Shown in pieces: positions 3-60,708 of a stretch of DNA of 64,000 bases. The stretch covers positions 156,439 through 220,438 of the forward strand of contig JBAZKM010000003.1 of the NCBI GenBank assembly GCA_041650805.1, given 5' to 3'. The notes under the pieces were generated by a model that ran no database searches, was not told the origin of the DNA, and saw nothing but the letters and a program-made list of their open reading frames with translations. The position numbers and the translations under genes are program-made. Position 1 is the stretch's first letter. The number at the start of each line of letters is the position of its first letter. This stretch comes from Candidatus Omnitrophota bacterium. GTDB taxonomy: Bacteria; Omnitrophota; Gorgyraeia; 2-01-FULL-45-10.

Positions 3-1814
3 GTCGCCGGCATGGAACCGGAAGAGGCGCTTGCGCGCTACAAGGCCGAAAAACGTATCAAAGGTTATGGTTCTACGCACTATATGAAGATGGCGGGATT
101 TTTGAAGGTCCTCCTCCTCGAACTCGCATCGATAGGCATCCCTGCCGGGCAGGTCGCAGATATTGAAGAAGATTATATGAAGATAACGGCCGGCCGGAAG
201 GATACTAAATATCTCTCCGCGACTCAGGACGAAGACAGTGCGGCGCTTATCTATACGCTTAAATTCAGATGGGCCTATCCCGGAGAAGAGGAGAAGGACC
301 GCGAAATAATATTTATAGAATGCGATATGACGCAGCCGGGCAGGTATCCAGATATTCTGAGAGAGGCAATCCGGGAAAAGTTCAATGCATACTATCAGCG
401 CGCAGGCCAGACGATGGCCGACAGCTATACCGCGTTTCTCGCGGAGGCGGCAAAAGGCATCGCCGCAGGCGGGTTTGTTGTCACTGACGACCGCGCATAT
501 CTCAGGGCTACCGAAGCGGACAATAAGGCGATAAGACGCGGTATCCTCGCTTCTCTCGGTTTCGCGGAACTTCCGCCGTCCGAAGATATGCGTAAGTGGG
601 AAGAGAGGATCCTGGCTGTCAACAGCGGCACCAGATACGGCTGGGACGTGGCGATAGAGACGGGTTCCGAATCGATCGGGAAGGTGTCTGCCTCTCCGGC
701 TGTCGGGGACAACGTCCCGATGGAAACGGAGACCGTCTCTGAAGACACTGCAGGGGCAAAAGCCGAGATTCCGAACTTCCTTTTTAGATCAGACACTACT
801 TTAGGAGATATTGAAAATTATTTTGACGCTTTAAGACAAGCGCTTTCGCAGGAAGGTCTTGATGCCGGTACGCGCAAAAAGATGTATAAGGCCGCCCAGG
901 TGGCTGTGGCGAAACTTAGGGTAGGGCTTGGATTGCTGAGAGACGGCAGGATGCTGGGGCATGAACCGTGCCTGGGTTGTGTCAATAACGGCGGTTGCGC
1001 CGTGGTGGCCGGACTTCTGGCCGGAGGTGTCCGTGGATCCGCTCCGGTTGACGACTGCGGAGCGATGAAGAAGCCGGCTATCTCGAACGATGACATCGGG
1101 TTGGCTATCATTGCGCTTGACACGTTCCTGAACGAAGTTAAGGGCGAGAACCGGCTAGAGACAAAGACGGCTCCCGACTCAAACCTCCAATCTCCAATCT
1201 CCAAGCTCCAAGCCCTCTTAGCATCTTCTCTTCAGTACGAGCGCGACAGGGCCGGCACACCCACAGACATAGTACCCGAAGGCCGTACGGTGATGCTCTC
1301 CGAAGGTCTCTTCGATATGGAGAAGAAGACAGAGCTTGTAGAGCTGATACTTAAGAATAGAGGCAGCAGTATACAGATACTCTCTGTAGATGAGCTCCGC
1401 CGCGGCGCCATAAGCGGGAGGGCCGCGAAGGATAATACCATAATAGTCCTTACAGAGGAGGAATTTAACGACCCGAAGGTCTGGAACGGCTATGCCAAGG
1501 AAGAGCGCGGTATAAATTCAAGCGTCCTGTTGCTGGATGATAATGCTAAATTTATAGGCACGAACTACCTCTACCTTGAAAGTGTCCTGAAACTATCGGT
1601 AGCTATAATGGCGGGCAACAGGGGTGCGGTCGGATCCTTCTATAAGCTCATAGCCGGAAGGCCGATAAGCGATGAGGCGCTCGCATCCCTCGGTATTGAC
1701 CCGGTCACCTTTGCCCTCAATGCGATACTGGAGTTCGATGAGATGCGGGTGAAGGATGCCGATGAGTTCGAACAGTATAAGCGCGCCATGGAGGTATTCC
1801 TGGCGGCGGCATAA
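3..1814 (+). CDS. Hypothetical protein, 5'-truncated at window edge. Its C-terminal ~200 aa is homologous to the C-terminus of the 7094-aa giant protein, so this is probably the tail of a paralogous large protein.
   Basis: Frame is open to the window start. The heptamer-encoded linker NLQSPISKLQA (nt 1184-1216) precedes a domain matching the giant's C-terminus (VLLLDDNAKFIG vs VIVLADNKFVSG; LSVAIMAG vs LAVAIALSS; similar length after the linker). Confidence 0.55.
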   Translation, partial: VAGMEPEEALARYKAEKRIKGYGSTHYMKMAGFLKVLLLELASIGIPAGQVADIEEDYMKITAGRKDTKYLSATQDEDSAALIYTLKFRWAYPGEEEKDREIIFIECDMTQPGRYPDILREAIREKFNAYYQRAGQTMADSYTAFLAEAAKGIAAGGFVVTDDRAYLRATEADNKAIRRGILASLGFAELPPSEDMRKWEERILAVNSGTRYGWDVAIETGSESIGKVSASPAVGDNVPMETETVSEDTAGAKAEIPNFLFRSDTTLGDIENYFDALRQALSQEGLDAGTRKKMYKAAQVAVAKLRVGLGLLRDGRMLGHEPCLGCVNNGGCAVVAGLLAGGVRGSAPVDDCGAMKKPAISNDDIGLAIIALDTFLNEVKGENRLETKTAPDSNLQSPISKLQALLASSLQYERDRAGTPTDIVPEGRTVMLSEGLFDMEKKTELVELILKNRGSSIQILSVDELRRGAISGRAAKDNTIIVLTEEEFNDPKVWNGYAKEERGINSSVLLLDDNAKFIGTNYLYLESVLKLSVAIMAGNRGAVGSFYKLIAGRPISDEALASLGIDPVTFALNAILEFDEMRVKDADEFEQYKRAMEVFLAAA

Positions 1815-4032: not shown

Positions 4033-4036
4033 GAAT

Positions 4037-4402
4037 ATGAAAGAGCAGAGATTTAGAAAGCTAGAAGTTTGGATCAAAGCAATGGATTTTGTTGAGATGA
4101 TTTATAAGATCACAAACAATTTTCCGCTAAGGGAGACGTATGGTCTTACAAGCCAATTGAGGCGAGCAACGCTATCTATAGCTCTGAATATTGCCGAAGG
4201 AAGCGGCTCTTCTTCCGATAGAGAATTTAGTAGATTCTTGAATATATCTTTGAGGTCATCTTATGAAGTTATGTGCGGCATCGAAGTGGTAAGGCGACTT
4301 AAGTATTGCGATGACAATGCAATAAGCATTTTATCGGACAGATGTGATGAGATATCGGCAATGTTGACCGGTTTAAAGAGAAAGCTGAAAGCTGACGGCT
4401 GA
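4037..4402 (+). CDS. Four-helix-bundle protein of the 23S rRNA intervening-sequence protein family (the family that includes DGR accessory protein Avd).
   Basis: 121 aa with the family signature ...ATLSIALNIAEGSGSSS...FLNISLRSSYEV. The C-terminus KRKLKADG is encoded by the heptamer repeat. Confidence 0.7.
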   Translation: MKEQRFRKLEVWIKAMDFVEMIYKITNNFPLRETYGLTSQLRRATLSIALNIAEGSGSSSDREFSRFLNISLRSSYEVMCGIEVVRRLKYCDDNAISILSDRCDEISAMLTGLKRKLKADG

Positions 4403-4420
4403 TAGCTGAAAGCTGAGGCC
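4383..4420. repeat. AGCTNTC heptamer array in reverse-complement orientation (right flank of the four-helix-bundle gene), forming an inverted pair with 3988-4032.
   Basis: agctgaaagctgacggctgatagctgaaagctgag. Confidence 0.8.
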
Positions 4421-4533: not shown

Positions 4534-5586
4534 ATGACTAAGACAAAGGTAAAGGAAGTTAAGGAGAGGGAACCGATAAGGGAAGATGCTAAGGATATAA
4601 GCCAGGAAGAGAAGACGAAGGCGCTGGACCTGGCTCTCGGGCAGATAGAGAAGCACTTCGGGAAGGGCGCCATAATGCGTCTCGGGCAGGACTTCAAGGT
4701 CGATGTCCCGGCCATCCCCACGGGTTCCATCGCCATAGACGTGGCGCTCGGCGTAGGCGGGGTCCCGCGCGGCAGGGTCGTGGAGATATTCGGGCCCGAG
4801 TCGAGCGGCAAGACGACGCTGACTTTGAGCATCATCGCGAATGCCCAGAAGGCAGGGGGGCAGGCGGCATTCATAGACGCGGAGCATGCGTTCGACCCGG
4901 CGTACGCAAAGAAGATAGGCGTGAACCTGGATAACCTTCTCATGTCACAGCCGGACACGGGCGAGCAGGCGCTCGAGATCACCGAGACGCTGGTGAAGTC
5001 GAACGCGATAGATGTCGTAGTTGTCGATTCTGTCGCGGCGCTGACGCCGAAGGCGGAGATAGAGGGCGATATGGGCGAATCGCACATGGGACTGCAGGCG
5101 AGGCTGATGAGCCAGGCGCTCAGGAAGCTCTCAGGGTCGATCTCCAAGTCGAAGACCTGCGTCATATTCATCAACCAGATAAGGGAGAAGATCGGCATCA
5201 TGTTCGGCAACCCCGAGACGACGCCCGGCGGCCGGGCGCTCAAATTCTACGCCTCGGTCAGGATAGACCTGCGGCGTATAGCGTCTCTGAAGAAAGGCGA
5301 TGATGCCGTCGGTAACAGGGTCCGCGCCTCTATCGTTAAGAACAAAGTAGCGCCGCCGTTCCGGAAGGCGGAGTTCGATATTATGTTCGACGAGGGGATC
5401 TCCAGGGCCGGCAGTGTGATAGATGTGGCGGAGACGCTCGGCATATTGACGAAGAGCGGTTCGTGGCTCATATACGGCGAAGAGAAGATAGGGCAGGGCA
5501 AGGAGAACGCGAGGACCTATCTCAGGGAGAACCCGAAGGTCCTGGCGAAGCTCGAGAAGGAGATCAGGGAGAAGGCGCTGAAATAA
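4534..5586 (+). CDS. recA: Recombinase RecA.
   Basis: Walker [24 protein letters not shown], and full-length colinearity (350 aa). Confidence 0.97.
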
Positions 5587-5594
5587 AGGTCAAG

Positions 5595-6065
5595 TTGGAA
5601 GAAGATAAGAAGAAGACGTTAGCGAAGAATAGCGCGTACCGGCTCCTGCGGGTGAGGCCGAGGAGCGAGGCGGAACTGCGCGGCCGTTTGAAAGAGAAGG
5701 GTTACGACGGCGTCACCATAGACGGGGCCGTAGAAGACCTCAGGACCAAGGGTTACGTAGACGACGAAAAATTTGCGCGGTTCTGGGTAGAGTCGCGCAT
5801 GCACCTCAACCCGGTCGGCGACGTGGTGCTGAAGCACGAGCTTAGGCGGAAGGGCATAAGCGATGCCGTCATAGACGCCGCCCTCGAGACGAAGGCAAAG
5901 GCCTATAACGAGTACGAGATCGCCCTCAGCATGGCGCGCGACAGGTTCGAGCGCCTGAAGAAACTCGACCGGCGCAAGGCGACGAAGCGCCTTTACGACT
6001 TCATGTTGCGCCGGGGCTTTGCGTACGAGACGGTGAGAAGAGTAATAGAAGAGTTAGCGAAGTAG
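5595..6065 (+). CDS. recX: Regulatory protein RecX.
   Basis: RecX-like helical repeats (AYRLLRVRPRSEAELRGRLKEKGY...) immediately downstream of recA. The start is uncertain (TTG 5595 chosen); the long ORF 5463..6065 overlaps the recA 3' end. Confidence 0.75.
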   Translation: MEEDKKKTLAKNSAYRLLRVRPRSEAELRGRLKEKGYDGVTIDGAVEDLRTKGYVDDEKFARFWVESRMHLNPVGDVVLKHELRRKGISDAVIDAALETKAKAYNEYEIALSMARDRFERLKKLDRRKATKRLYDFMLRRGFAYETVRRVIEELAK

Positions 6066-6069
6066 GTAT

Positions 6070-10503: not shown

Positions 10504-11157
10504 ATGATAGCTATAATCGACTACGGGATGGGTAACCTGAGGAGCGTCCAGAAGGCGTTCGAGGTCACGGGCGCCGGGGCGAAGATCACCTCAAGGGCGG
10601 CCGACCTGGCGAAGGCGGAAAAGGTCGTATTCCCGGGCGTCGGCTCTTTTGGAGAGGCGATGGCGGAACTGAGGAGGCGTAAGCTCGTAGACCCGATAAA
10701 GGGTGCCATCGCAGAGGGCAAGCCGTTCCTCGGCCTCTGCCTCGGGCTTCAACTGCTTTTTGAACGGAGCGAGGAAGCGCCCGGCGTTAAGGGGCTGGGA
10801 GTGCTTAGCGGCAGGGTGAAACGTTTTAAGCCCGCAGTCCACAGCCCACGGCCCAATGCTCAAACGTTGAAAGTCCCGCATATGGGCTGGAATAGTATCA
10901 GCTTTCAGCTTTCAGCTTTCAGCTTTCAGCAAAATATCCTGAAAGGCATAGACAGAGGTTCGTACGTATACTTCGTCCATTCATATTACGTCGATCCGGA
11001 GGATAAGAGTGTGACGCTTACGACGACGGATTATGGTATCCGGTTCGTGTCGGGTATTTCGAAGGATAATCTATTCGGTCTTCAATTCCACCCGGAGAAG
11101 AGCCAGGATACAGGGTTGAAGATAGTGAAGAATTTTGTGAGGATAAAATGCAGATAA
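10504..11157 (+). CDS. hisH: Imidazole glycerol phosphate synthase, glutaminase subunit.
   Basis: GATase-1 with catalytic LGLCLGLQ and PHMGWN...FVHSY. Has an in-frame AGCTTTC heptamer array at 10896-10932. Confidence 0.93.
   Translation: MIAIIDYGMGNLRSVQKAFEVTGAGAKITSRAADLAKAEKVVFPGVGSFGEAMAELRRRKLVDPIKGAIAEGKPFLGLCLGLQLLFERSEEAPGVKGLGVLSGRVKRFKPAVHSPRPNAQTLKVPHMGWNSISFQLSAFSFQQNILKGIDRGSYVYFVHSYYVDPEDKSVTLTTTDYGIRFVSGISKDNLFGLQFHPEKSQDTGLKIVKNFVRIKCR
10896..10932. repeat. AGCTTTC x5 heptamer array inside the hisH coding sequence.
   Basis: tcagctttcagctttcagctttcagctttcagc, encoding SFQLSAFSFQQ between the GWN and FVHSY motifs. Confidence 0.85.
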
Positions 11158-11910: not shown

Positions 11911-12687
11911 ATGCTTACAAAGCGTATAATACCGTGTCTCGATGTAAAGAACGGCAGGGTCGTCAAGGGCGTGAACTTCGTCAACCTTAAGGACGCGGGA
12001 GACGCCGTCGAGAACGCGCGTTTTTACGATCGCGAAAAGGCGGACGAGCTTGTATTCCTCGATATAACGGCCAGCCACGAAAGGCGTAAGACCGTTATCG
12101 ACCTGGTGAAGAAGGTGGCGGACAGCGTATTCCTGCCTTTCACCGTAGGGGGCGGCATAGGGACGATCGACGATATCAGGAGCCTCCTTAACGCAGGTTG
12201 CGATAAGGTCTCGGTCAATACCGCGGCGGTGAAGCGGCCTGCGTTCGTGAGGGAGGCATCGCGGAGGTTCGGCAGCCAGTGTATCGTCGTGGCGATCGAC
12301 GCAAAGCGGTCCACAGTCCATGGTCCGCGGTCCACAGGAAAATGGGAAGTGTATATTAACGGGGGACGGACACCGACCGGGATAGATGCGGTAAAGTGGG
12401 CAAAGAGGGCCGAGAAGCTGGGCGCAGGCGAGATCCTCCTTACGAGCATGGACTACGACGGCACTAAAGCGGGTTATGATATCGAGCTTACCGGTCGCAT
12501 AAGCGAAGAGGTCGGCCTCCCGGTCATAGCTTCGGGAGGGGCCGGAACGCTTGAAGATCTGTACGATGCGCTTTCGAAAGGGAAGGCCGATGCGGTGCTG
12601 GCCGCGTCTATATTCCACTTCCGGGAATATTCTATCCCGGAGGCAAAGAGATATCTTAAGGGAAAGGGTGTAAGGGTAAGGTTATGA
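11911..12687 (+). CDS. hisF: Imidazole glycerol phosphate synthase, cyclase subunit.
   Basis: [16 protein letters not shown]..., [19 protein letters not shown]. Contains a GTCCACG repeat segment (STVHGPRST) at 12308-12338. Confidence 0.93.
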
Positions 12688-19979: not shown

Positions 19980-20906
<927 letters not shown>

Positions 20907-29095: not shown

Positions 29096-29123
29096 TTGAC
29101 ATATATAAATTAGGTGATATACT
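29096..29123 (+). promoter_or_regulatory. Strong sigma70-like promoter with extended -10, upstream of the giant gene.
   Basis: TTGACA (29096-29101), 16-nt spacer, TGaTATACT (29115-29123), inside an AT-rich 120-nt intergenic region. Confidence 0.5.
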
Positions 29124-29170: not shown

Positions 29171-29275
29171 ATGTTTATCACACTGAAACAATCTAATAAT
29201 ATCGCAAGGCGACTGGTATCGGTAATACTGATCGCCTCTTTTCTATTTACCAATTCCGATCTCTCTTTGGCCCGG
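29171..29275 (+). other. N-terminal signal peptide / membrane anchor of the giant protein.
   Basis: MFITLKQSNNIARRLVSVILIASFLFTNSDLSLAREIF: positively charged n-region, a 15-aa hydrophobic core, and an A-x-A-like site. Confidence 0.6.
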
Positions 29276-32200
29276 GAGATATTCTCTGACCGTACAACCC
29301 TCTCGCCGGCCTCCCGCTTCAACCCGCTCGCTAAGATAAGAGAGAAGGATGACGGCACGTTCGATATTGTCCGGGATGAGGAAGGGCGAAGAGACCTCAA
29401 GGATGGATTCAAGGCCGATGCCGAATTCCTGTATCTATCCCGACTGATAGGCGATGCCCTGGGCGATGCGGTCCGTATGAAATTGACCTACGAAGGATTG
29501 CGTATCCTGATAGAGAGGGACCTGCGCGACACGAAGACCGAATTCGAGCATTTTGATCCCGCCAGGCTATACAGAAGAGACGATTCCTATTATCTCCCGT
29601 ACAAAAGCGCCCTTACCGGCGGCGATCTGCTGCTGCGGTACTTTGTTAGCTCCACCGGCCATAAATTCCCTGACGCCGTAAAGGTCGCCGACCTCGGTGA
29701 GGGGGATTTTGTCTGGATGGAGACGATATCTGCGGATGGCATAGAGGCCTCGGCGCCAAATGCCGTGCTTCTAAAAAGGCCGGTCGATATCATAGATCCC
29801 GGGGAGATAAAGACGGGAAGGGATCTGGTCCGTATCATAGATGAGGTCCTGAGGGCGCCGCATCCCGCAGAGGCGCTTCAAGCCGCCTGCCATTCGCTGG
29901 CCATAACCGGTCACGCTATACTTGCCGGATACGAAGAGTATCTTAATGACGAAGGCCTTGGCGTAAAGAATGCCTTTTCGGATATGCTCAGGAAGGTTGA
30001 GTCGGGAAAGCTCGTTTGGACCAAAGACGATTTCGGCGAATTCAAGAAGCTGGTGAAAAAGATACCCACCATAGATGATCCCAACGAAGACCTGTTTGTG
30101 GATGTCCTGACAGATTTTACCCCGGACATGATACGGTTATTGGCAAATAGCGGCTACGATCACAGTTTTAACCTCCAGCTCACAAAGGGGTGCGGTAACC
30201 AGTGCCTAATATGCGGTGTCTCCAAGGCGCGCGGCGCGATGCACCACATACCATTCCCCATAGCGGCGAAACTGCTTCGTAAAGTCAACAGGTACCAGTC
30301 TAAGCTGATGCCGTATTTTGACAGCGATGCGCTCCATTATCGCGACAGTGTAGTAAACGCCACATATGCGGATATAGTCAGTTTTGCCAGGAGATCCGGT
30401 TTCACATGGGTCCCTACGGTTACTCACGGCATAGGCGGGGCAAAGGCAAAAGGATCCGGCGACATCGTCAGGGAGGCGCGCAATTATCTTACCATAAGCG
30501 TTCATGTTTATCATCATCCGGTGATGGAGTACGTAAAATCGAAATTGGAAGGGAAGATGACCGATGAGGCCCTGGCCAAGAGGAGAGAGTCCATCATAAA
30601 CATGTACGCGGATAGATTTGTCTATCTTATACAGGGGGCGATCGATTCAGGAAAAGGGTTCCAGATAAGGTTATTCCGGCCGAATCCCGACGTCGAGTAT
30701 ATGCTTCAACGCCACCTGTACGCATATGCTGCCGTAAAGGAGATCCAGGCTATACAGGATGAAGTATGGAGCCGTGTAAAAGGACGTATACCTTTGGACA
30801 TGGATAGGACCAGTGATACCCACGTTGTCTGGATCGATGACGCCGCCCGTTTCCTGAAAGATCTTGGAGTGCCGGAGGATATCATAGCGAATACTCAAAA
30901 GGCATATGACGATAACATTTATAACGGCGCAAGCATAGTAGGGGATCACTATTCCCTCATAGCGGGGCCTGATGGCTCAGTCACCATGCAGGTCAGAGAA
31001 GGGAATAACCTGCGATTCAGGACGGTGGGTGAGATGTTTGAAGGGCCCGCTTCCGAAGGGTTTGGATCGTTTGTACAGGCGCTCAAGATCATATCGTCCT
31101 TCGATTACGATAATCCTAAGTCATCGAGAAATTCGTATGTATCTTCCGCTAAGATGAAAGATATCGGCACGGATATCGAGGGCCTTATCCTGAGAGAGTT
31201 GAGGAAGGAGATCGCCCGTAACCCTTATTCAGACGAAGAGGTGGCTGAAAAAGTTAAAGAGATAACCGTTTACCGGACGATGGGGGATTTTTATAAGCTC
31301 TTATTTAGCTTTTACCTAAACCAGGACGAGATAAGGCGGCTATCGCATGATCCGACAGAAGGGGGTGCCGCCTTGCTGTATCAGCGCCTTAAGGATGTCC
31401 CATTCCCCGTGAAGATGGAGTTCAATATTGTGATGCAGGATAACGAATTATGCGTCTTCAGTTATTCCCCCATGGACGCAGGCAGGCCGGGATTCGAAAA
31501 GGACCTTTACAATTCTACACGTCGTTTCGAACTTCCGGTCCGCGCGTTTGCCTCACGGTCTGAAGCTGCGCAAAGGCCGCCGTTCCCGGGCCACGGTCCG
31601 GGCTCGCCGCACATTACTCAGGGACCGGATGAGCCGGCACCGCTGATCTCCCGGGTAGATGAGCTCTGGGGCGACAGGCCCGTCAGGGTGCGAAAGATCA
31701 TAGCCGCTATACTGGGAGATATGAGAGGTCCTTTGACCGCGATCTCTGTAAGACAGGCAGCGGGCAATATCCTCCGCGATAACCTGATGAATGCCAAGGC
31801 CCGTCAGGGTGCCGTAGATGCGATAACATTCCGCAAATGGATCTCGAGAACCGGCCTTATTTCGGACCTTCTTGCTCCGGCAGATATCGGGGAATCGGAC
31901 GTAGCCGAGATATTTCTGCGTCACGGTCTGAAATTCGACAGGGACCTGCGGCGCAGGCTTTGCGGGCCGTTCCGCGATGAGATATCGCTTATAAAAAAGG
32001 CGATGAACGCTCTTCAGGAAGCTTATGACCCGCTACTTTCGGATACGTCTCCGGACGAAAGGTCCAAACAGGAATTTGAGGAAAAATATGAATTCAGGGC
32101 ATATGAAAAAGGCACTTCATTTGTGCCTGTTCTGGGTATCCTGTGGGCGGTGAGAGACCAGGATGTCGTATCAATATCCTACCGCATCGCAAACCGGATA

Positions 32201-50200: not shown

Positions 50201-50455
50201 GGCAGTGCCTTCCTCGCCGGTGTCGATACCGCTAACTTTACGACGGTTTCATACCGGCCGCAGATAGACCTGCTCGAGATGCTGGCTGTGGCGATAGCGC
50301 TCTCTTCCGATAAAGAGCTCATGACCGACTCCGAGATAGAGAAGCGCCTCGGTTTCAGGCGCATCAATAAGCGCATGATCGTCTACCTGCCCGAAGCACA
50401 CCCCATAAACACCGAAGAATACCGCTTCCAGCTGGTTGCTCTCCAAAATGCATAA
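29171..50455 (+). CDS. Giant 7,094-aa multi-domain protein. Order: N-terminal signal/anchor, radical-SAM motif, GNAT, SAM-MTase, wHTH + degenerate Fic/Doc, kinase-like, HD, zincin-like peptidase, ~35x 31-residue repeats, AT-rich module, Rossmann-like region, and a conserved C-terminal domain.
   Basis: Single uninterrupted 21,285-nt ORF in GC-rich DNA. Domain motifs are listed as separate features. Recurring linker motifs delimit the modules. Confidence 0.9.
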   Translation: MFITLKQSNNIARRLVSVILIASFLFTNSDLSLAREIFSDRTTLSPASRFNPLAKIREKDDGTFDIVRDEEGRRDLKDGFKADAEFLYLSRLIGDALGDAVRMKLTYEGLRILIERDLRDTKTEFEHFDPARLYRRDDSYYLPYKSALTGGDLLLRYFVSSTGHKFPDAVKVADLGEGDFVWMETISADGIEASAPNAVLLKRPVDIIDPGEIKTGRDLVRIIDEVLRAPHPAEALQAACHSLAITGHAILAGYEEYLNDEGLGVKNAFSDMLRKVESGKLVWTKDDFGEFKKLVKKIPTIDDPNEDLFVDVLTDFTPDMIRLLANSGYDHSFNLQLTKGCGNQCLICGVSKARGAMHHIPFPIAAKLLRKVNRYQSKLMPYFDSDALHYRDSVVNATYADIVSFARRSGFTWVPTVTHGIGGAKAKGSGDIVREARNYLTISVHVYHHPVMEYVKSKLEGKMTDEALAKRRESIINMYADRFVYLIQGAIDSGKGFQIRLFRPNPDVEYMLQRHLYAYAAVKEIQAIQDEVWSRVKGRIPLDMDRTSDTHVVWIDDAARFLKDLGVPEDIIANTQKAYDDNIYNGASIVGDHYSLIAGPDGSVTMQVREGNNLRFRTVGEMFEGPASEGFGSFVQALKIISSFDYDNPKSSRNSYVSSAKMKDIGTDIEGLILRELRKEIARNPYSDEEVAEKVKEITVYRTMGDFYKLLFSFYLNQDEIRRLSHDPTEGGAALLYQRLKDVPFPVKMEFNIVMQDNELCVFSYSPMDAGRPGFEKDLYNSTRRFELPVRAFASRSEAAQRPPFPGHGPGSPHITQGPDEPAPLISRVDELWGDRPVRVRKIIAAILGDMRGPLTAISVRQAAGNILRDNLMNAKARQGAVDAITFRKWISRTGLISDLLAPADIGESDVAEIFLRHGLKFDRDLRRRLCGPFRDEISLIKKAMNALQEAYDPLLSDTSPDERSKQEFEEKYEFRAYEKGTSFVPVLGILWAVRDQDVVSISYRIANRIADDYRKARKAGRESIFPLIRNTRIRARLLERTAVDIPLAIHIFNDELDSRERGFFLGLIREYFGGEMVSAVSAVMSGRGMDDAVALAGRDRQFIIFSINFFLKSVFFYKSVDMGQLEKLIPDIPVNMGYEDILTAGIRERFSSIGPGTAWAETPEAGGLIGTFGRVNPETAFVPIGKFWPRDRIAYLTEDNSFALMRRRGGHAGYAGVAVDEEDRELLSEGGAVIPGTSTDGSRFVLIQRMIPVGERKVFAWKLKERGISAYSLPLGFITIERDGRRYRDYYPHLDCCLNVIARDFTEDGRVKILIDPLYYKSVKDDPEFRRLLREQGFLPDDVIIISEEDSGLNLANFAETISGDGRRILIFNAGAASTLSRIPLKAGSYEELPEPLYLLAQSGGLQRCASNLFPREEVPLPGAPSYKVDGTAFPPDVIEAIYRSFSDDGRFSRFLEAFRKCGIEIVQITANRYSDKTEALKTMLPYEAAIYVAPREGTEEVLNEILKGFEVILADLRSNWGGIIIDAGPDGENGIRERPPFPGHGPGTPHIAQGPDEPEDLLSPEPQAPGSKPITDAERLNKLDRKLSYIALGVSVPAFLAMLAGIMMGSDIGVAIVGVSSIIGSAALGTTALLRVKWILEPGERKETGGTTPVRVDITEERSERIEVTIERVPGEESEIHIVAKDPEGKEAGRATYMIRSEDAIQLLSIDVFESKKRRSGIGEQLMLRIKDEMVEAGRSEIFLFCLQSNAGAIRFYDKMGERLGMAMTKEDAIFHDQPPAAYKITYRITNDKRQKTNNGNPARNSGPDTITIKPVPPGTFPDLDARGTPQDRPGDQEKRRAQQQKLAVQLLQKEFARKEALVKYGIYTAAELAVVEGLYRRFAVGEDLSHFSPYEKVFIWQYMILMDMHSSSFRMLEEEVNRLAEDLEIDGLYVGFEWNDHMAPEDKVRTVENNISIRPGMRMLDIGCGKGSVIIELARRHAGVEFIGIDANPRNISNALTRLMEMGPEAPRNVRFHMLDCREPVADKAIPRRGIPYGEGAFDVISLMEGVFDEAHSSDSAERLLWREAIRVAGKDGGIVAFFGLAGKNKFEESLPEGVYAEMKDNTFFSIGGRNTRYYFPSWTREDEPSPYRREKTEFCVWRLALRHGEELPGHQVTMSPVASGLQTETAPGPSQPVQQDLPFETEGTPPPASDPSSGRRTQGNFGPGAMNVDEPLGRTSPLSEHAQETLFTARLHFSGEGFTAEDLLGKVASSGTGRILSDLDELERNGYIEAVGSGKTPGFRLTAEATFALITMEYNLSPIYIGELGRRGVDLPADIDNPDELASHIIEFTKGDARIDAKTTLHMILDLTNLLEWEYVYLQALEMKKAGKNWALIDTVGLEEALDKLRPLVSRRLLEVQDLEVGWIGHGLEAARTPPETDDFQKAASLVNRYVTGGLAAGEEELKEIHSVVSEHLKVFSAGRSRNVRRGEYRAYEDAYRDLTYFPLAEKVPDAMAAVFRLIKVPEFMGLHPVEQAAITFYLIHNIQPFDNGNTRTASLFMDCLLMKNNYPPFVISEYNERRFHEVIKFMRRPEPERFNEGSMTQSEFVNDPMKLLGSPDALAKIRRYAREFTAFLAEETARELVLQPPSPGSQTQGSPGHQVTRSPVRGDEGRLAEEAASASGTPDLSGYEPRWVTGVKEVGSDPAGPYEIFIDHGRNYGNYTDVNEALYNGKRYMAKWVSGHGEREGLIASQARVLNYLKDVLSDADLARISMPEYIQLEDGTRMLLFEKFTAGSTMNDIMESGFLALSNKRASLLRAVREIACAVKALHDVNVYHGDITLKNVWVFEDGRIKLFDFDFATMGTAGLRQRGLNLWFVSPERLERAFGKKEATIDKKAAVTDEVCSIGVIMTAVLTGELLFNHVVTGEKAGRKRPMRYDPRTALNAVGVPGRIVEVAVRALADSKDRFQTVDELIRALDGSETPSEPIGKTSPDAGKETFPKDPEPVSGTPETAALRDAIEAAIPQGIGFYKKRNPGQPDETTRRKIDEQNSLAEPLLTRTIERLRAHYPDIAEMLADLYPRVLPYYIAGMDVNYIQHHATVIDFASEIAVGERLDEKESAILILAALFHDSGNGLTTLSKVTATAVHNMPVTTPGERAAREGVIEQAVAFRKEHMEIGAGIVREIIEPYRARAPDILPGEDVSEIERLVLHHDDLKIPLWQENVDTTWLTAKDDRSLQFLMEADALWMLTPLGIRSDIDKSEGEPLSPSAQASFNVGLFRKWKELYDRAFDAETVNGYGFRDGTLLRSHAAYLIYQRLIEEAANDPENVPGRRTTPGNLGPGAMNIDEPFEARGPGPAPKTADRRPADTDFVEKVLDTQISMHGLQRLFDEGLLDKRIALAWYRALVSKGGLTDKELSDEIDGEMDYMPPDELYGALKDRGLNPKNRIVAIEADRVLKGYFDHLRREHGIVLPYGYLSIEDNVVFMPKRKLKRYYDAPKAVTDSFLHKVIISNEFKGKELLTYLIHEGLHLNAVGFYLQGVGGMRGSHLNEGMAEYLTRDAMEFMGVDGGSGLWRKTTAEWKVKAVRIVESMIRYMGERSTLIRAFFNGGIDTLPIIPMTLAKAVIKEKTQVYYDGNKMPFSAARRVIREKTPKDIPDDEIYILAEHDRNGYMLISRYTAAEGNEKGPGLQIVLSSIGVIPEDAPALLSVEAVTGYRALDMSDSMSLLEFFTALERATRTASESDLFFAAGKWESLKASVTAPTLSRVVLEITPYIERGLSLAMERCKAAKREKDDHLSAEAEFDDTADMDEDELAEHFAEKALNGEMPKGLENIFEPQDDDEGGSASDVTVRTASYWRTTPGNLGPGAMNIDEPFGSHKDGPLSIEEAVKRIEALLEDAPRQRSISTKEAVTNVLMSIARDGEFVFNRKQANRVASVRRFGDKLPLLKFLVTYKIKTEDGDRYVFNGGHVAIISPSSRTNQDAERLIVALKDMGITEGAHLAIITASSRSEDEIKKIVPFLRAHGITANSHIASILKSSRDEAEIGGLVSFLGDLGITEPAHITRILTTSRGRKEIEGMVTMLKGLGIVKGAHISYIVQTSRTEAEVKNLIDFLDGLGIRGGFAVASIVHSAREKDDISAIIETLRAAGITEDAHIAMILMSKRTGDEIAGILAKLKKHKIADGVSCSIILRSSRKEEDIEGIVKALKKCGMKSIHIALVISASRTKDQIEKAIRSLALYEIKNPSHIASILACSRSNKEIRMLVSMLVACGITDGAHIALIASTKRSTSEVRRLTGHLRRSGITHPFHIAAIIQSSRPEQGIMSLIEMLKASGITGGASIAMISGSSRSEAEISSVVSSVRSLGIVNSCNIATVVASSRKEEDIERLIRSFRRAGFEEPAHISLMIHSSRTEGEIAEIIAGLDAINISEHSAVARIIHSSRSKAEIEDLVKLLVENNIEKDGHIARIIGSSRPKVEVRSIIKTLKALGIVKPFDMAFIIQGKRSEDDIKEIISMLRKHGINKGFHIAVAIHCSRPKEGIERLLKTLAGQGITGGLDTALVIRSTRDEKEIPDIIETLKAAGIRKSFYLAEVLASSRTKSEIREIVRTLKALGITDAGSIAIVLKGSRSKKAINEMVPVLKAAGFSDERDLAHILLSGRTLAEINVTVSRLKACGIIKSSHIAHLLRTDRPIEEMERIIASLRDSGIRDASAMTRILMGGRSASEIKGLISELCSVSITTPKNIAVIARSDRSTKEMKELVGILNAAGIRDETAVTRIIACDRSNNEIRSVIPALRSLGITKEFHMAMVISTSRTVEDIKKVVEAARSSGINESFHLALVAGSSRRLSDIEGLFRSLEAEGITDQYHKACVVHSERTNAEISSGIALLKSIGVKAPAKIARLLSTSHSDEEFRSTVTLLEGVGITDINRIISILELRRPPAEVGDAFELLRQAGITDNTMSFPIIKRRSAEEIEGIVSLLKYKGIVNTGEIAIVLRSKRSREEIEITLKMLQRFGISESVPRALIIKSRHTAREIEDLIPALRQAGITRSAQIAGILYGEGSKEEIEEKITQKTLPEKEKAAPAPAEVMAQDMAEEMSAQEETMVAPEPVGVSKGKRVMPTLYKTLQSVGLLPKDAARLPADIEKRYSALSITDSMLFLKFFTIMKRVIAQYADGREEAPDEDVFVVASEAWRNIGAIKAGSDVHAIAQSIKGPAEDALAAAMRAIEKAREETARKNLMEERATEEEDEDVLAEQFAESALRGEVPEDLEEALEEVRGELTEQSSAEVLPEPDSELSMEESDAPSAGRTTPGNLGPGAMNIDEPFEAQGPQPTAQSPELPVPDSGLQARPFADVTVTPVVGEAAGVTLRGLYSIPAIPDETTAQPFFSVIMHERYYKEFTEKVVDFLRALEESMNTPKETREEKSKVLQKKYSLHDAMTKSLHKWAEYTLQNTNADGPLYAPGKGFSLYAIILACNTISDFYPQFTHIKPEEWLCYEIASYGKLPLNEKNRNILIKANGYLERVLADEDRTNQICRDLYGEDYRVINLVLKWLGNIAEITAHPAERNKARNFLTYFIKQLLRENRDILEAFASFVFDRFEKAKKQRSGSEENHGIKIAIVLTGAEHLGQWLRIKSKLLGKEIAFQDLSLTLSMFMHLEYINDAGDSGSYILGQSSKESLKQSLHEIGITPSDTRHLILVDTGFEGSINKYIVYPLKEMGVSEELLLLFRKDERSVNTYGFNQEQGWEGSEKRLRKLAHIIDDGFEASTLSPTQFSDITDKKLASTQRPWFCELIKREIELFAYTTSEGLSATQPDIAEDDLVGAAPLTARPFALFPAAGATAEVSTTPAGGVPQSDVSQTVQQIAPETFSGPIGKASPDAGEDTFPKDSEAVSVANEEQEGLIQLYRRLYPVVFEFADQAGIVTGDKVVVIGTHVDWQCGIACALKGADVISIGLESDEDEREFKAADEVRESIEKNGGQYRIMRPYDYLKVPVPESSIKIIVAQNVIDDPEANSPAIVRKMLRDVQDGGYIAVSFLCDEQIWYTNIKRQAERLGFILQESVFADFTGMSGTSYIFRVIKNAPGLTAQSSQPTAQSPVLQAQGSPVTSHQSPVQERGQTPSALSSASAETLEAKSGISKVMLWRRDSTGEGGVVEAADDEIRETAQEIAAGKYKFTYLITGNILSLGIVEDDKKTHHDKVKKPNIEDRPLKGDKMDGQFLILPWEIERRTYAEWREQYIRFARFLIEQGILASEPLQVALKASGVIPKIFEPDPMPETLGELANMSLSNEIAPSSQLPTPNSILQAPSPNLTLQAQESTVHGPRSTKGAPVVVEDKEYGVTLLDDYYTYLPRETYGLSLLGTKVGISNTRYAVVRLKDTTINVATHHSAGYIFPVMAAKDGLINGDEVLLHIDFARHPDDADLILSPPPLGNDIGEHLAFLGPYKDKGFLGPENYLTALKKAFPDLVPVFLKDEDDGHYSWGGIEWAYQGSVIDFLAQIQDKTGGARFPWLARGKIASIDLDIFRCLKDDTTKTEQLLDAIADVAAPAKLIMIFTSPGYLDKEFAITLAERLVEKIARNLQDLAGNDRDVSVNGEGRGQGSQVLVKDIQKRGQTPSTEEHLTRLDNVYFGAFPYNGDTSYVKNEESHVRVPRSRPGRGDMLVDVNSATIFEYGLIESKIKTSPLKVMVSDETDGKVANCHQGEAILIKTENANDVLGTLFLEECDAIGGRTVIKGEPYLFLYHKNDSFRNKSFSTFVQWLLKMSDSVQDLECCISMRRGLDERCAAEYENFQETIADLSSLYPGVRVHAVRSRQEPGLFGSMVVSKYGVTCRTAKYTGRTRRDDATADWANAEVAMVPFAVGSSPKTQEPVFGAHDAQTPNSQPPTPNLTLQAPNSKLQANWPVRLVDTIKIRAMEAKEEGQKLIVGVGTSWIPGYAEQGEEHNGLNPILSELRNLRALDNIVFVDAPDNELAQELIKKADGSKTDYKNVIVLADNKFVSGELKASTEIEKAALDGFRSLANGSAFLAGVDTANFTTVSYRPQIDLLEMLAVAIALSSDKELMTDSEIEKRLGFRRINKRMIVYLPEAHPINTEEYRFQLVALQNA
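30150..30800 (+). other. Radical-SAM-like region of the giant protein.
   Basis: NLQLTKGCGNQCLICG contains CxxxCxxC (Cys codons at 30191, 30203, 30212). Confidence 0.45.
31573..31637 (+). repeat. Linker motif A, copy 1: RPPFPGHGPGSPHITQGPDEP.
   Basis: Near-identical at nucleotide level to 33790-33852. Confidence 0.85.
33790..33852 (+). repeat. Linker motif A, copy 2: RPPFPGHGPGTPHIAQGPDEP.
   Basis: ccgccgttcccgggccacgg...cagggaccggacgaacc. Confidence 0.85.
34165..34495 (+). other. GNAT N-acetyltransferase domain of the giant protein.
   Basis: Motif A RRSGIGEQLM (R/Q-x-x-G-x-G/A), with the beta-strand pattern IHIVAKD...LLSIDVF before it and AIRFYDKMG after it. Confidence 0.6.
35040..35470 (+). 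other. Class I SAM-dependent methyltransferase domain of the giant protein.
   Basis: Motif I MRMLDIGCGKGSVIIELA; acidic post-I residue in FIGIDAN; motif II-like AFDVISLMEGVF. Confidence 0.6.
35776..35830 (+). repeat. Linker motif B, copy 1 (divergent): RRTQGNFGPGAMNVDEPLGRTSP.
   Basis: Related to the three near-identical copies at 39121, 40712 and 45055. Confidence 0.8.
35870..36900 (+). other. Winged-helix + Fic/Doc (Fido)-like domain with a degenerate active-site motif.
   Basis: ILSDLDELERNGYIEAVGSG (wHTH), then AITFYLIHNIQPFDNGNTRTASLF. The canonical HPFx(D/E)GNGRxxR has H->Q and G->T (nt 36769-36798). Confidence 0.45.
37250..37990 (+). other. Protein-kinase-like (ePK/APH superfamily) domain of the giant protein.
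   Basis: AxK YMAKWV; catalytic-loop-like HGDITLKNVWV; DFG-like KLFDFDFA; SPERLE. Confidence 0.55.
38086..38165 (+). repeat. Linker motif C, copy 1: PIGKTSPDAGKETFPKDPEPVSGTPE.
   Basis: Near-identical to 46738-46815 (PIGKASPDAGEDTFPKDSEAVS). Confidence 0.8.
38380..38800 (+). other. HD-domain phosphohydrolase region of the giant protein.
   Basis: LAALFHDSGNG (H..HD) and LVLHHDDLKIP. Confidence 0.55.
39121..39180 (+). repeat. Linker motif B, copy 2: RRTTPGNLGPGAMNIDEPFEA.
   Basis: ~50-nt near-identity with the copies at 40712 and 45055. Confidence 0.9.
39480..39960 (+). other. Zincin-like metallopeptidase (Peptidase_MA-like) region.
   Basis: HEGLH (39706-39720), with NEGMAEYL 25 residues downstream (HExxH + EGxAEY). 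Confidence 0.45.
40712..40765 (+). repeat. Linker motif B, copy 3: RTTPGNLGPGAMNIDEPFG.
   Basis: actacaccgggcaacctcggccccggcgcgatgaatatcgacgagccgttc. Confidence 0.9.
41030..44340 (+). repeat. Array of ~35 tandem 31-residue repeats (~1,100 aa) within the giant protein.
   Basis: Consensus G-I-T-x-x-x-H-I-A-x-I-L-x-S-S-R-S-x-x-E-I-x-x-L-V-x-x-L-x-x-x. The Arg is invariant in nearly every unit. Positions 3-7 and the three residues before the Arg are hypervariable. Confidence 0.85.
45055..45125 (+). repeat. Linker motif B, copy 4: RTTPGNLGPGAMNIDEPFEAQGPQPTAQSPE.
   Basis: Followed by a heptamer-encoded PELPVPDSGLQA linker. Confidence 0.9.
45290..46610 (+). other. Compositionally distinct AT-rich module inside the giant ORF (probable acquired cassette).
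   Basis: ~1.3 kb of visibly lower GC (A/T-rich codons, K/N/I/Y-rich peptide), bounded upstream by linker B copy 4 and downstream by linker C copy 2. Confidence 0.6.
46738..46815 (+). repeat. Linker motif C, copy 2: PIGKASPDAGEDTFPKDSEAVSVANEE.
   Basis: atcgggaaagcgtctcccgatgcgggcgaagacaccttcccgaaggat. Confidence 0.8.
49840..50455 (+). other. Conserved C-terminal domain of the giant protein, shared with the C-terminus of the ORF at 3..1814.
   Basis: Begins after the heptamer-encoded linker PNLTLQAPNSKLQA; colinear similarity to the ORF1 tail. Confidence 0.5.
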
Positions 50456-50975
50456 AAAAGCGTAAATTTTTACGGGTCCTGCCGCTCCCTCGCCTTTTGT
50501 TTCTATAGGGCATTCAACGCTCTCGAGGCGTACCAATGACCGATCGTGGATCCCAGGCGCCGTAGTGCCCTATACTCCAAAAGGCTCGGTCGCGTCACCC
50601 GTAAAAATTTTACCTAGTTCATATAGTAAAAAATTTTTCGTCTCTCATCGAAGGGGCCCCCGATGGTGGGGTATCGACCGGGACCTGAATCCAAATTTTG
50701 ACAGGGCAAAATTTGGATATCGTATCATCAGACGAATATCCAGAATTTGCCATGACAAATTCTGGATGAAAATCGCGAGCGGGCACGGATCCCGCCAAAC
50801 ACCTTTAAAAGAGCGTCTATTGACATAACAGGGCTACCCGACTCGTTTGGCGGGAGAGCGAGCGATTTTCCGGAGTCACATTTTCCTCGCCGGGGAAAAT
50901 GTGACGTTCCCGGGAGATACCCCACCGGAGAGGGGACACGTGGAAAAGACGAAAAATTTGACCTTAAAATTTTAC

Positions 50976-51004
50976 TTGACATATATATACTATTATTGTA
51001 TATA
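50976..51004 (+). promoter_or_regulatory. Sigma70-like promoter of the rimP-nusA-infB operon.
   Basis: TTGACA (50976-50981), 17-nt spacer, TATATA (50999-51004). Shares the TTGACATATATA start with the giant-gene promoter. Confidence 0.5.
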
Positions 51005-51023
51005 TAGTACATACTTTTCTTAA

Positions 51024-51068
51024 AGGAGGAAAAGTGGGTTTAAGCATTGTTTAGACCCATTTTTTTTT
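51024..51068 (+). terminator. Leader element: RBS + 6-codon ORF (GTG..MGLSIV) embedded in a hairpin followed by a T9 run (candidate attenuator upstream of rimP).
   Basis: AGGAGG 51024-51029; GTG 51034; stem gggtttaag/tttagaccc (51036-51058) with loop cattg; T9 at 51060-51068. Confidence 0.45.
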
Positions 51069-51090
51069 GCCCCAAAATCGGAGCCTACAA

Positions 51091-58427: not shown

Positions 58428-58434
58428 CTAAATA

Positions 58435-58510
58435 GTCACCAAGTCACCAGGTCACAAAGTCACCAGTGAAAGCTTTTACGGGTGACGTGGTGACCTGGTG
58501 TCCTGGTGAC
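58435..58510. repeat. ~75-bp imperfect palindromic intergenic element built from GTCACCA heptamers (copy 1).
   Basis: gtcaccaagtcaccaggtcacaaagtcaccagtgaaagcttttacgggtgacgtggtgacctggtgtcctggtgac. It shares the 31-nt core caaagtcaccagtgaaagcttttacgggtgac with 60639-60708. Confidence 0.85.
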
Positions 58511-58527
58511 CAAATAAGCTATATACT

Positions 58528-60632: not shown

Positions 60633-60638
60633 CATTCA

Positions 60639-60708
60639 TGTCACAAAGTCACCAGTGAAAGCTTTTACGGGTGACCTGGTGACGGGTGACCTGGTGACCG
60701 AGAGGCTA
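60639..60708. repeat. GTCACCA-heptamer palindromic intergenic element (copy 2).
   Basis: tgtcacaaagtcaccagtgaaagcttttacgggtgacctggtgacgggtgacctggtgac. Confidence 0.85.

Follow-up and report, generated by a model that had tools for sequence, protein, structure and literature searches.

A 64,000-nucleotide (nt) stretch of DNA from a Candidatus Omnitrophota bacterium (assembly GCA_041650805.1, contig JBAZKM010000003.1, positions 156,439-220,438 of the forward strand), which as a whole we call the window, carries a giant open reading frame (ORF) among housekeeping genes. The ORF occupies window positions 29171..50455 of the plus strand, starts with ATG, and runs through 7,094 sense codons without an internal stop (its stop codon is included in the coordinates). 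Its product, hereafter the giant, is a chain of about 17, and at least 16, gene-sized cassettes, and the junctions of this chain are of three kinds: selected peptide motifs, an in-frame palindromic DNA element, and arrays of heptamers or octamers.

Given the base composition of the ORF itself, the probability of a stop codon is 0.049, i.e., one stop is expected per ~20 codons, and the chance of 7,094 consecutive sense codons at its base frequencies is ~1e-154. An independent assembly (ENA accession ERZ27247363) contains a 66-kb contig, k141_648330, on which the gene caller likewise gives a 7,094-residue product; this contig starts ~1.6 kb inside the window, extends ~4 kb past it, and shows 0 mismatches over 21,794 and 15,473 nt in the two loci compared, a comparison that covers 8.0 kb at the start and 1.9 kb at the end of the giant gene (9.9 kb). 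The exact sequence of the giant is also a cluster representative (P0003) in a library of 1.84 billion proteins, and a Logan contig of run SRR8542065 matches a neighboring part of the window, outside the giant gene. Because independent DNA is identical, the same 7,094-residue product is called from it, the sequence represents a library cluster, and a frame of this length has such a low chance probability, an artefact is very unlikely, and the uninterrupted 21.3-kb ORF reported in a preliminary description of this DNA is almost certainly a real single gene. That description put the DNA at ~56% GC, which needs correction: the GC content is ~0.51 in the ORF and ~0.54-0.57 in its flanks.

Cassettes of the giant protein

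Pfam and NCBIfam profile searches were run on ten overlapping segments of the giant, with Pfam gathering cut-offs. This segment-wise check, which the preliminary description had itself proposed, returned matches above these cut-offs for six Pfam domains, all of them lying in the same frame, whereas amino acids (aa) 1-1560, 3320-3880, and 5090-7094 have no sequence or profile match in Pfam, NCBIfam, or PDB. The modules are as follows.

29171..29272 (+), predicted signal peptide or signal anchor of the Sec type (K6, R13, and R14; hydrophobic aa 15-27; SLA|RE; from hydropathy)
29780..31558 (+), M1, divergent radical-SAM-like module, aa 204-796 (CGNQCLIC at aa 341-348; end ...LPVRAF)
31685..33784 (+), M2, 700 residues, aa 839-1538, between linkers D14a and D14b
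33938..34090 (+), two-helix transmembrane hairpin, aa 1590-1640 (from hydropathy; K/R-rich flanks on both sides)
34217..34459 (+), GNAT acetyltransferase, aa 1683-1763 (PF00583, 30.7 bits versus a cut-off of 20.7; RRSGIG acetyl-CoA motif; RimI-like)
35051..35419 (+), class I S-adenosylmethionine (SAM) methyltransferase, aa 1961-2083 (PF13847, 43.1 bits; PF13649, 34.2 bits; LDIGCGKG)
36509..36820 (+), Fic module, aa 2447-2550 (PF02661, 42 bits versus a cut-off of 24; XopAC/AvrAC-like)
37469..37900 (+), protein kinase, aa 2767-2910 (PF00069, 52.8 bits; HGDITLKN catalytic loop, DFD for DFG; Bud32/MAD6-like)
38411..38869 (+), HD phosphohydrolase, aa 3081-3233 (PF01966, 29.5 bits versus a cut-off of 22; LFHDSG)
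39251..40039 (+), M8, HExxH module, aa 3361-3623, candidate gluzincin-type metallopeptidase (LIHEGLHLN ... LNEGMAEYL)
40172..40699 (+), M9, first copy of an acidic helical module (M11 is its paralog by self-BLAST)
41099..44350 (+), mTERF-like solenoid, ~35 x 31 residues, within aa 3977-5060 (PF02536, 67.3 bits)
44471..45046 (+), M11, acidic helical module, copy 2 (self-BLAST)
45179..47374 (+), M12-M13, orphan modules of foreign composition, aa 5337-6068, divided by linker D12b; no homolog found
47486..48004 (+), M14, orphan module, aa 6106-6278; no matches
48119..49756 (+), M15-M16, orphan modules, aa 6317-6862; no matches
49841..50452 (+), M17, C-terminal domain (end ...LVALQNA), homologous to the C-terminal domain of the long protein P0065

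Hydropathy of the giant peaks at aa 15-33 and at aa 1590-1640; the first peak agrees with the signal peptide read earlier from the sequence, and homologs of the N-terminal module begin with signal or lipobox sequences. The CxxxCxxC motif previously ascribed to a radical-SAM enzyme lies in M1, whose homologs share the consensus LQLTxGCxNQCxxC around the cluster-binding motif. M1 of the giant has no PF04055 match at the gathering score, and its homologs P0033 (25.9 bits versus a cut-off of 29.5) and P0023 have sub-threshold PF04055 matches that start at the cluster-binding motif. An AlphaFold2 model of M1, built from a 17-sequence alignment, has a predicted local distance difference test (pLDDT) score of 87.5 and a predicted template-modelling (pTM) score of 0.88, and its best Foldseek matches in PDB are SkfB, viperin, NifB, a viperin-like protein, and anSME, all of which are radical-SAM enzymes. 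Foldseek probabilities are 0.99-1.0 for the four best and 0.84 for anSME (rank 21), with weak E values (7e-3 and above) and template-modelling scores of 0.35-0.46. The motif, the modelled fold, and the sub-threshold matches of the homologs point, with moderate confidence, to a divergent radical-SAM domain.

M2 has no Pfam or PDB sequence match. In an alignment of 19 homologs (alignment A3, by whose numbering the residues are given), D157, D178, N216, and N219 in the C-terminal half are invariant, and H155 and C271 (in ...GGLxRC...) are conserved in at least 90% of homologs. We take these residues to resemble the Cys-His-Asp center of guanidino-group-modifying enzymes.

The GNAT, class I methyltransferase, kinase, and HD domains named in the preliminary description all score above the Pfam gathering cut-offs; the motifs of the GNAT, methyltransferase, and HD domains are intact, and the kinase retains HGDxxxxN and the metal-binding Asp. 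The degenerate Fic/Doc module likewise passes the PF02661 gathering score, and its active site reads QPFDNGNTRTAS in place of HxFx[DE]GNGRxxR, with substitutions of Gln for His, Asn for [DE], Thr for the second Gly, and Ser for the final Arg. The module keeps the fold, but, with the catalytic His lost and the motif degenerate, it is very likely inactive as an enzyme. A winged helix-turn-helix said to lie beside it has no profile match in the segment-wise Pfam searches. The best PADLOC/NCBIfam matches of the methyltransferase (35051-35419) and the kinase (37469-37900) are the MADS components mad2 (3e-14) and MAD6 (3e-16), a similarity that is probably generic superfamily likeness. We rejected a reading of the giant as a defense system, in that the PADLOC matches (PD-T4-6/mad6 for the kinase, SoFic, and mad2 for the methyltransferase) amount to generic superfamily similarity with no system context.

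In M8, HEGLH stands at aa 3513 and NEGMAEY lies 21-25 residues downstream. Its sole detectable relative is aa 1041-1288 of P0002, a partial Omnitrophica protein of 3,596 aa (28% identity, E 2e-18), in which both LIHEGLHLN and LN[ED]G..EYL are conserved; no relative was found in JGI metagenomes. The putative zincin identity of M8 is thus drawn at motif level. Downstream, an acidic module of ~200 aa occurs twice (aa 3668-3870 match aa 5101-5320 by self-BLAST) and brackets the solenoid, whose repeat, xLkaxGItxxxHIAxIixSSRsxxEIexlvx, has, as reported earlier, a strict 31-residue period, over ~35 units (autocorrelation peak at lag 31; register listing).

The C-terminal end of the giant comprises about six orphan modules. 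As had been proposed, part of this region is compositionally foreign: the GC content at third codon positions is 0.32 and 0.38 in M12-M13 (aa 5337-6068), compared to 0.46-0.67 in the remaining modules; in the window, four housekeeping genes have values of 0.71-0.74. M17 matches the C terminus of P0065 (29% identity, E 9e-9). The claim that the C-terminal domain is conserved in a paralog did not hold for the second modular protein in the window: BLASTP of the giant against ORF 12..1814 finds only a heptamer-encoded linker, and hhalign gives a probability of 0.1%. Read to the window edge, where it is open, this frame is ORF 3..1814 (+), which encodes the last 603+ residues of a protein that starts upstream; its aa 13-218 match P0091, its aa 427-603 match the C terminus of P0073 (3,029 aa), and its modules are connected through an inverted copy of the D12 palindrome and a linker of CTCCAAT heptamers.

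Profile searches and self-comparison agree with the earlier statement that no logic of nonribosomal peptide synthetases (NRPS), polyketide synthases, RHS proteins, or adhesins is visible and that unrelated enzyme domains are joined by reused linkers. M2, the transmembrane hairpin, the duplicated acidic module, the C-terminal orphans, and the DNA nature of several linkers go beyond the modules that were listed there.

Junctions between the cassettes

The linkers, including the copy of D12 that lies outside the giant, are as follows.

31571..31684 (+), linker D14a, RPPFPGHGPGSPHITQGPDEP
33785..33898 (+), linker D14b, RPPFPGHGPGTPHIAQGPDEP
35635..35665 (+), octamer tandem array, translated PGHQVTMSPV
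35777..35850 (+), linker D4a, diverged copy, RRTQGNFGPGAMNVDEPL
37095..37125 (+), octamer array, GGTCACCA x3.9, translated GSPGHQVTRSPV; the repeat family also occurs in spacers 58434-58511 and 60637-60700
38072..38151 (+), linker D12a, palindromic 80-nt element, translated ETPSEPIGKTSPDAGKETFPKDPEPVS; hairpin z = -2.6
39128..39201 (+), linker D4b, RTTPGNLGPGAMNIDEPF
40706..40779 (+), linker D4c, RTTPGNLGPGAMNIDEPF
45056..45145 (+), linker D4d (RTTPGNLGPGAMNIDEPF) followed by an AGCCCAC heptamer array
46733..46812 (+), linker D12b, second copy of the palindrome; hairpin z = -4.1
47386..47472 (+), heptamer arrays GCTCACA, CACAGCC, and GTCACCA, translated LTAQSSQPTAQSP...GSPVTSHQSPV
48016..48111 (+), heptamer arrays CTCCCAA and GTCCACG, translated ...STVHGPRST; the array and its peptide also occur in HisF and the NTP-transferase
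49768..49833 (+), heptamer arrays AACTCCC and CTCCAAG, translated TPNSQPPTPNLTLQAPNSKLQA
641..748 (-), third copy of D12, inverted, translated in frame (ETGSESIGKVS...) inside ORF 3..1814; z = -3.7

(i) Peptide motifs. The D4 motif, PGNLGPGAMNIDEP, i.e., PG(N)LGPGAMNIDEP, occurs four times and the D14 motif, RPPFPGHGPGxPHIxQGPDEP, twice, and the two share the pattern PGx(x)GPG...I...DEP. All nucleotide differences among D4 copies b-d are synonymous (proportion of synonymous differences [pS] 0.15-0.38; proportion of nonsynonymous differences [pN] 0), and the two copies of D14 differ with a pS of 0.37 and a pN of 0.043. Neither motif folds as RNA any better than shuffled controls. With pN far below pS and no RNA structure, D4 and D14 behave as peptides under purifying selection, and they are probably functional as peptides. 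Every copy of D4 contains an in-frame ATG, and the linkers of the giant are rich in Pro, Gly, and Ser.

(ii) A palindromic element. D12 is present in three copies of ~80 nt in the window, two in the giant and one inverted in ORF 3..1814; it forms a long hairpin, and both orientations translate to ETxSExIGKxS. With a pN of 0.13 next to a nearly equal pS of 0.15, no selection on the peptide is evident. Rickettsia palindromic elements (RPEs) are selfish palindromes that insert in frame into protein-coding genes, and D12 resembles them in length (~80-90 nt), in its long hairpin, in occurring in both orientations, in lying in frame in two ORFs, and in encoding an unselected peptide; it differs in numbering three copies in 64 kb and in lying at inter-module junctions, and the likeness is one of form. 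D12 is a DNA element that is tolerated in frame.

(iii) Heptamer and octamer arrays. Ten such arrays are translated as linkers in the giant. A heptamer array yields the same cyclic seven-residue peptide in each of its three frames, 7 being coprime to 3; a slip by one unit would shift the downstream frame. Period 7 dominates the tandem repeats of the window (28 of the 57 Tandem Repeats Finder rows), and many such arrays are found in some relatives as well. Housekeeping enzymes likewise carry heptamer arrays of three to five copies, in frame and within their Pfam-matched catalytic domains, as follows.

6845-6925, alanyl-tRNA synthetase (AlaRS), in-frame heptamer array
10829-10930, HisH-like glutamine amidotransferase, in-frame heptamer array
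12307-12335, HisF, in-frame heptamer array
20501-20531 and 19985-20011, NTP-transferase, in-frame heptamer arrays
3299-3333 and 2659-2692 (-), CinA, in-frame heptamer arrays

A GGTCCAC array gives the peptide STVHGPRST in three proteins, namely, HisF, the NTP-transferase, and the giant. We considered that the heptamer linkers might be fossil intergenic spacers, an idea weakened by the in-frame arrays in AlaRS, HisH, HisF, the NTP-transferase, and CinA: because they also lie in frame inside housekeeping enzymes, the arrays are a genome-wide phenomenon and not old gene borders. Intergenic arrays occur as inverted pairs (AGCTTTC/GAAAGCT and GTCACCA/GGTGACC) at 1818-1889, 3887-4416, 58434-58511, and 60637-60700; such pairs would form long intergenic hairpins and could act as terminators or RNA stabilizers.

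Comparable short tandem heptanucleotide repeats are the cyanobacterial short tandemly repeated repetitive (STRR) sequences. Arrays of the heptanucleotide TAACTGA are described from Beggiatoaceae, cyanobacteria, and Bacteroidetes (PMC4679880). In these bacteria, as in the window, short 7-nt arrays of three to five copies dominate the repeat spectrum and many are intergenic; the window differs in having several unit sequences and many arrays that are in frame in catalytic domains of housekeeping enzymes and at junctions of the giant.

Cassettes, border motifs, and genomic setting

An exhaustive HMMER search with aa 200-1399 of the giant against 1.84 billion representatives gave 122 matches, including the giant itself and two chance matches to NRPS (P0084 and P0112). 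M1 stands alone in proteins of 640-710 aa (P0001, P0005, P0024, and P0033), with a lipoprotein-type signal at the start of P0001, and is embedded in longer proteins at residue 3845 of P0004, 1558 of P0007, 654 of P0009, 1558 of P0014, and 3361 of P0096, as well as twice in P0010. M2 similarly stands alone in P0011, P0021, P0025, and P0036 and is embedded in P0013, P0017, P0043, and P0082. The C-terminal border of M1, ...LPxRAF, is conserved: stand-alone proteins stop 15-25 residues later, and in long proteins the border is followed by a Pro/Gly/Ser-rich linker and then another module. By these comparisons, M1 and M2 are shuffled cassettes.

In a set of 123 proteins, which without the giant amount to 173 k residues, only the giant and P0002 contain the words [ST]PP?HI[ATGS][EQ] and NLGP[GD]A, and only these two contain the pattern HEGLH...LN[ED]G..EY; the genome GC content is 54% for the giant and 41% for P0002. 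Other long proteins are punctuated by other motifs. R[SA]E[LMIVAT]R is present in 14-22 copies in each of P0013, P0017, P0043, and P0082 (5,930-7,652 aa), mostly a few hundred and up to ~1,500 residues apart, and looks like a module-border or cleavage motif; SSSPV punctuates P0010, and KPMPQEE punctuates P0009. An explanation of RSE[LMIV]R as an in-frame Shine-Dalgarno sequence plus start codon was dropped, Ala being frequent at position 4 (RSEAR occurs five times in P0013).

In about half of the collected long proteins, a hydrophobic stretch precedes a terminal ...xA or ...AA-COOH (LQNA, SQSA, ESAA, AAAA, AWAA, ARAA, or RQAA), namely, P0003, P0004, P0006, P0009, P0013, P0017, P0019, P0043, P0055, P0065, P0069, P0073, P0075, P0082, P0121, and the ORF at the window edge. 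Such termini may constitute a shared C-terminal signal or degron.

The neighbors of the giant gene are those given in the preliminary description, with plsY upstream and the rimP operon (rimP-nusA-infB) downstream; the wider region comprises glmM-like, lepA, lepB, pgsA, and plsY genes on the upstream side and rimP, nusA, infB, trpS, scpAB, and aromatic amino acid genes on the downstream side. The LepA encoded in the window is 82-84% identical to that of several Candidatus Omnitrophota metagenome-assembled genomes, and the block lepA-lepB-pgsA-plsY is kept in the nearest Omnitrophota relatives, where genes of ordinary size follow plsY. A tblastn search of the giant against 80 relative loci gave no match, and no relative of its aa 1-3880 is present in the GTDB species representatives. 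Given the ordinary genes after plsY in relatives and these two null results, the giant gene is, as judged by comparison, a lineage-specific insertion in a housekeeping region. Moreover, since cassettes M1, M2, M8, and M17 are found elsewhere, the border of M1 is conserved, the composition is mixed, and the gene is absent from the syntenic position in relatives, the most likely origin of the chain is that cassettes accreted and fused. Two features flank the gene.

29096..29123 (+), sigma-70-like promoter, TTGACA-16-TATACT with a TG extended -10, ~48 nt 5' of the ATG (11/12 consensus matches; consensus match only)
50456-51090, non-coding spacer of 635 nt between the giant gene and rimP, with a long-range inverted repeat (GTAAATTTTTACGGGT at ~50461, ACCCGTAAAAATTTTAC at ~50598)

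The promoter-like elements fit the earlier claim that the gene has a strong promoter of its own, insofar as a consensus match can indicate one. The spacer also contains further hairpins and a promoter-like TTGACA...TATACT near 50977; it has no Rfam match at gathering thresholds, and Rfam and tRNA scans of the whole window returned no matches.

Proposed processing of the chain and competing explanations

Very long proteins with several enzyme domains have been catalogued twice in this phylum. The "Archaeovorins" of Omnitrophota combine methyltransferases, peptidases, radical-SAM and GNAT domains, and more (West-Roberts et al. 2023, bioRxiv 10.1101/2023.11.21.568195), and a second catalogue (Nielsen & Lui 2026, bioRxiv 10.64898/2026.06.07.730766), with 916 proteins of its own of at least 10,000 aa, recognizes a "multi-enzyme" class in which methyltransferase, GNAT, HAD, and HD domains are among the commonest to co-occur, finds transmembrane helices or signal peptides in 94%, and, for 5,761 proteins of at least 10,000 aa in all, reports that ~80% of the clusters at 30% identity are singletons. 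The giant shares with these proteins its phylum, an N-terminal signal or transmembrane anchor, many unrelated Pfam domains without a dominant one (methyltransferase, GNAT, HD, and radical SAM being common in the catalogues), an internal repeat scaffold (of HEAT type there), and a mostly unique sequence; it adds Fic, kinase, and mTERF-like modules and explicit repeated linker motifs. We are accordingly confident, though short of certain, that the giant belongs to this class of Omnitrophota cassette chains, and it is a small member of an already known phenomenon rather than a unique oddity. Both preprints (10.1101/2023.11.21.568195; 10.64898/2026.06.07.730766) leave it undecided whether such chains are cleaved, and, by word occurrence, linkers are unmentioned in either.

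On the interpretation that we develop here, the giant would be exported or inserted into the membrane by its N-terminal signal, and the selected motifs D4 and D14 would serve as sites of recognition or processing, where cutting would divide the chain into separate enzymes, as in a bacterial polyprotein. The HExxH module M8 within the chain would be the best candidate for the protease, with RTTPGNLGPGAMNIDEPF or PGHGPGSPHITQGPDEP as candidate cleavage-site peptides. The enzymes, released or tethered, would then act within a host or prey cell, or where the bacterium meets it, by modifying proteins or nucleotides; action on a partner cell would agree with the episymbiotic lifestyle that has been proposed for the phylum. 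A topology conflict exists in the uncut chain, which has both an N-terminal signal and an internal transmembrane hairpin that is positively charged on both flanks, and separation of the modules would make this conflict easier to resolve. The gene-like autonomy of the cassettes likewise speaks for separate modules. Viral polyproteins of the 3C-like and NIa-Pro systems, in which an embedded protease accompanies a repeated cleavage-site consensus, offer a parallel in having gene-sized units in one ORF and a short recurring motif that covaries with the protease; the giant differs in lying on a bacterial chromosome, in having a selected motif at 6 of ~16 junctions, and in that its cleavage is proposed only.

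We rate the interpretation as a whole, an exported cassette chain with selected linkers as recognition or processing sites, at about even chances, and its cleavage step lower. That the linker motifs are cleavage sites is a tentative proposal, somewhat more doubtful than not, and that M8 is the protease is unlikely. Equally unlikely is the extended version, in which the giant would be a self-processing polyprotein with M8 cutting at PG(N/H)xGPG...DEP linkers and in which lineage-specific motifs such as RSE[LMIV]R and SSSPV would form a cleavage code with cognate proteases.

Several observations weigh against the interpretation. (i) The selected motif stands at only 6 of the ~16 junctions, and purifying selection on D4 and D14 (18-21 residues) could also reflect a structural or docking role. 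A query of concatenated linker peptides has no match in an index of 5.8 billion proteins (which returned neither the giant nor other long relatives, so that very long proteins may be missing there), and the back-translated D4 motif is absent from JGI metagenomes; with no other protein of that index or of JGI carrying it, the motif is not demonstrably general. (ii) M8 has no Pfam match, no NCBIfam peptidase-profile match, and no PDB match, and its AlphaFold2 model, from a two-sequence alignment, is unusable (pLDDT 37). Of the zincin proposed in the preliminary description, therefore, what stands is the pair of motifs that is conserved in P0002. (iii) The co-occurrence of linker words and M8 has an n of 2, and P0002 was found via M8, such that a lineage-specific fashion in linkers is an alternative. 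(iv) The radical-SAM, GNAT, methyltransferase, and kinase domains need cytoplasmic cofactors, which fits poorly with simple export. (v) With 7,094 aa, the giant falls below the catalogue thresholds of 10,000 (Nielsen & Lui) and 30,000 (West-Roberts), although these thresholds are not biological criteria; it lacks, by Pfam and NCBIfam, the glycosyl transferase or hydrolase, NUDIX, SecA-like, C39, and S8 domains of Archaeovorins; and it is flanked by housekeeping genes, in contrast to the secretion, pilus, or glycoside hydrolase genes that flank Archaeovorins.

Of the competing explanations, the best supported, if still less probable than the interpretation above, is that the giant stays intact as a membrane-tethered multi-enzyme assembly line. 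Its linkers would then be flexible Pro/Gly-rich spacers that are alike through recent duplication or gene conversion and through a need for disorder and protease resistance. Their Pro/Gly/Ser-rich composition suits such spacers, as does a long solenoid set between duplicated acidic modules like a spacer or scaffold; no recognized protease family is detected in the giant by Pfam or NCBIfam; and the published view leaves room for intact and for cleaved chains. Flexibility, however, accounts poorly for a pN of 0 against a pS of up to 0.38 in three copies of D4, which points to a sequence-specific role, and for the retention of the PHI and NLGPxA words in P0002, where the shared domain is only 28% identical. 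The D12 and heptamer linkers, as unselected spacers in the same protein, have a pN about equal to their pS, unlike D4 and D14, and a signal peptide and a positively flanked transmembrane hairpin are hard to satisfy in an uncut chain.

Alternatively, as the preliminary description had hinted, the giant could be an effector train, in which kinase, GNAT, methyltransferase, HD, and Fic domains are delivered into a host or prey cell in the manner of MARTX or polymorphic toxins and there modify the host's proteins or nucleotides. MARTX toxins are long secreted chains with several unrelated effector enzymes, between which an in-chain protease cuts. Exported enzymes would have access to ATP, SAM, and acetyl-CoA only within another cell, the family model nearest to the Fic module is that of the type III effectors XopAC/AvrAC, members of the phylum are regarded as episymbionts or predators, and the giant combines an N-terminal signal with conserved inter-module motifs. 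We nevertheless regard this explanation as improbable: the catalytic motif of Fic is destroyed; Pfam, NCBIfam, and PADLOC detect no RTX repeats, cysteine protease domain, translocation domain, toxin family, or marker of type I, III, or VI secretion systems; the neighbors are housekeeping genes, and the secretion or pilus genes usual beside Omnitrophota giants are missing; and a radical-SAM iron-sulfur module is an unlikely extracellular passenger. In the comparison with MARTX specifically, the giant is without RTX/glycine-rich repeats, a cysteine protease domain, and a type I secretion context (Pfam and NCBIfam), and its candidate protease is instead the HExxH module.

Far less probable is a stop-less operon, fossil or functional, in which stop codons were lost and modules are made by internal initiation or after the RNA is processed at linkers with secondary structure, such as D12. 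Cassettes do occur as stand-alone genes elsewhere, D12 forms a long hairpin, the heptamer and octamer families of the linkers also occupy true intergenic spacers, and each copy of D4 has an in-frame ATG. But no Shine-Dalgarno-like motif precedes the ATG of D4 or other post-linker starts, the 31 candidates for a Shine-Dalgarno sequence plus start codon are scattered without a pattern at module borders, in-frame heptamer arrays in AlaRS, HisH, HisF, and the NTP-transferase show that the arrays are not old intergenic markers, and selection on D4 and D14 is at the peptide level, the RNA being unstructured. A chimeric assembly, or a decaying pseudogene still open by chance, might be suspected from the metagenomic origin, the mosaic composition, and an abundance of short repeats on which an assembler could go astray, but it is hardly credible in view of the ~1e-154 chance of such a frame, the six Pfam domains in one frame, a second contig, ending elsewhere, that is identical over the 9.9 kb of the gene compared, and repeats of 30-80 nt, which are far shorter than the unique modules between them.

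Beyond the giant itself, the in-frame invasion of housekeeping enzymes by heptamer arrays, along with the palindromic element, represents unusual genome-wide selfish or slippage DNA. The giant multi-enzyme proteins of Omnitrophota are a recognized puzzle. The protein described here is a comparatively small and clean case, in which borders can be defined to within a few residues by means of stand-alone cassettes, in which linkers selected as peptides stand beside plainly neutral linkers of DNA-element origin as an internal contrast, and in which a linker motif and an in-chain HExxH module form a candidate pairing; these three properties make the question of whether, and where, such giants are cut testable by proteomics and biochemistry. 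Over-represented k-mers at domain borders would likewise provide a simple bioinformatic screen for the thousands of catalogued giants. If the self-processing reading is true, the lineage-specific border motifs would be the long-sought cleavage-site code of the Omnitrophota giants.

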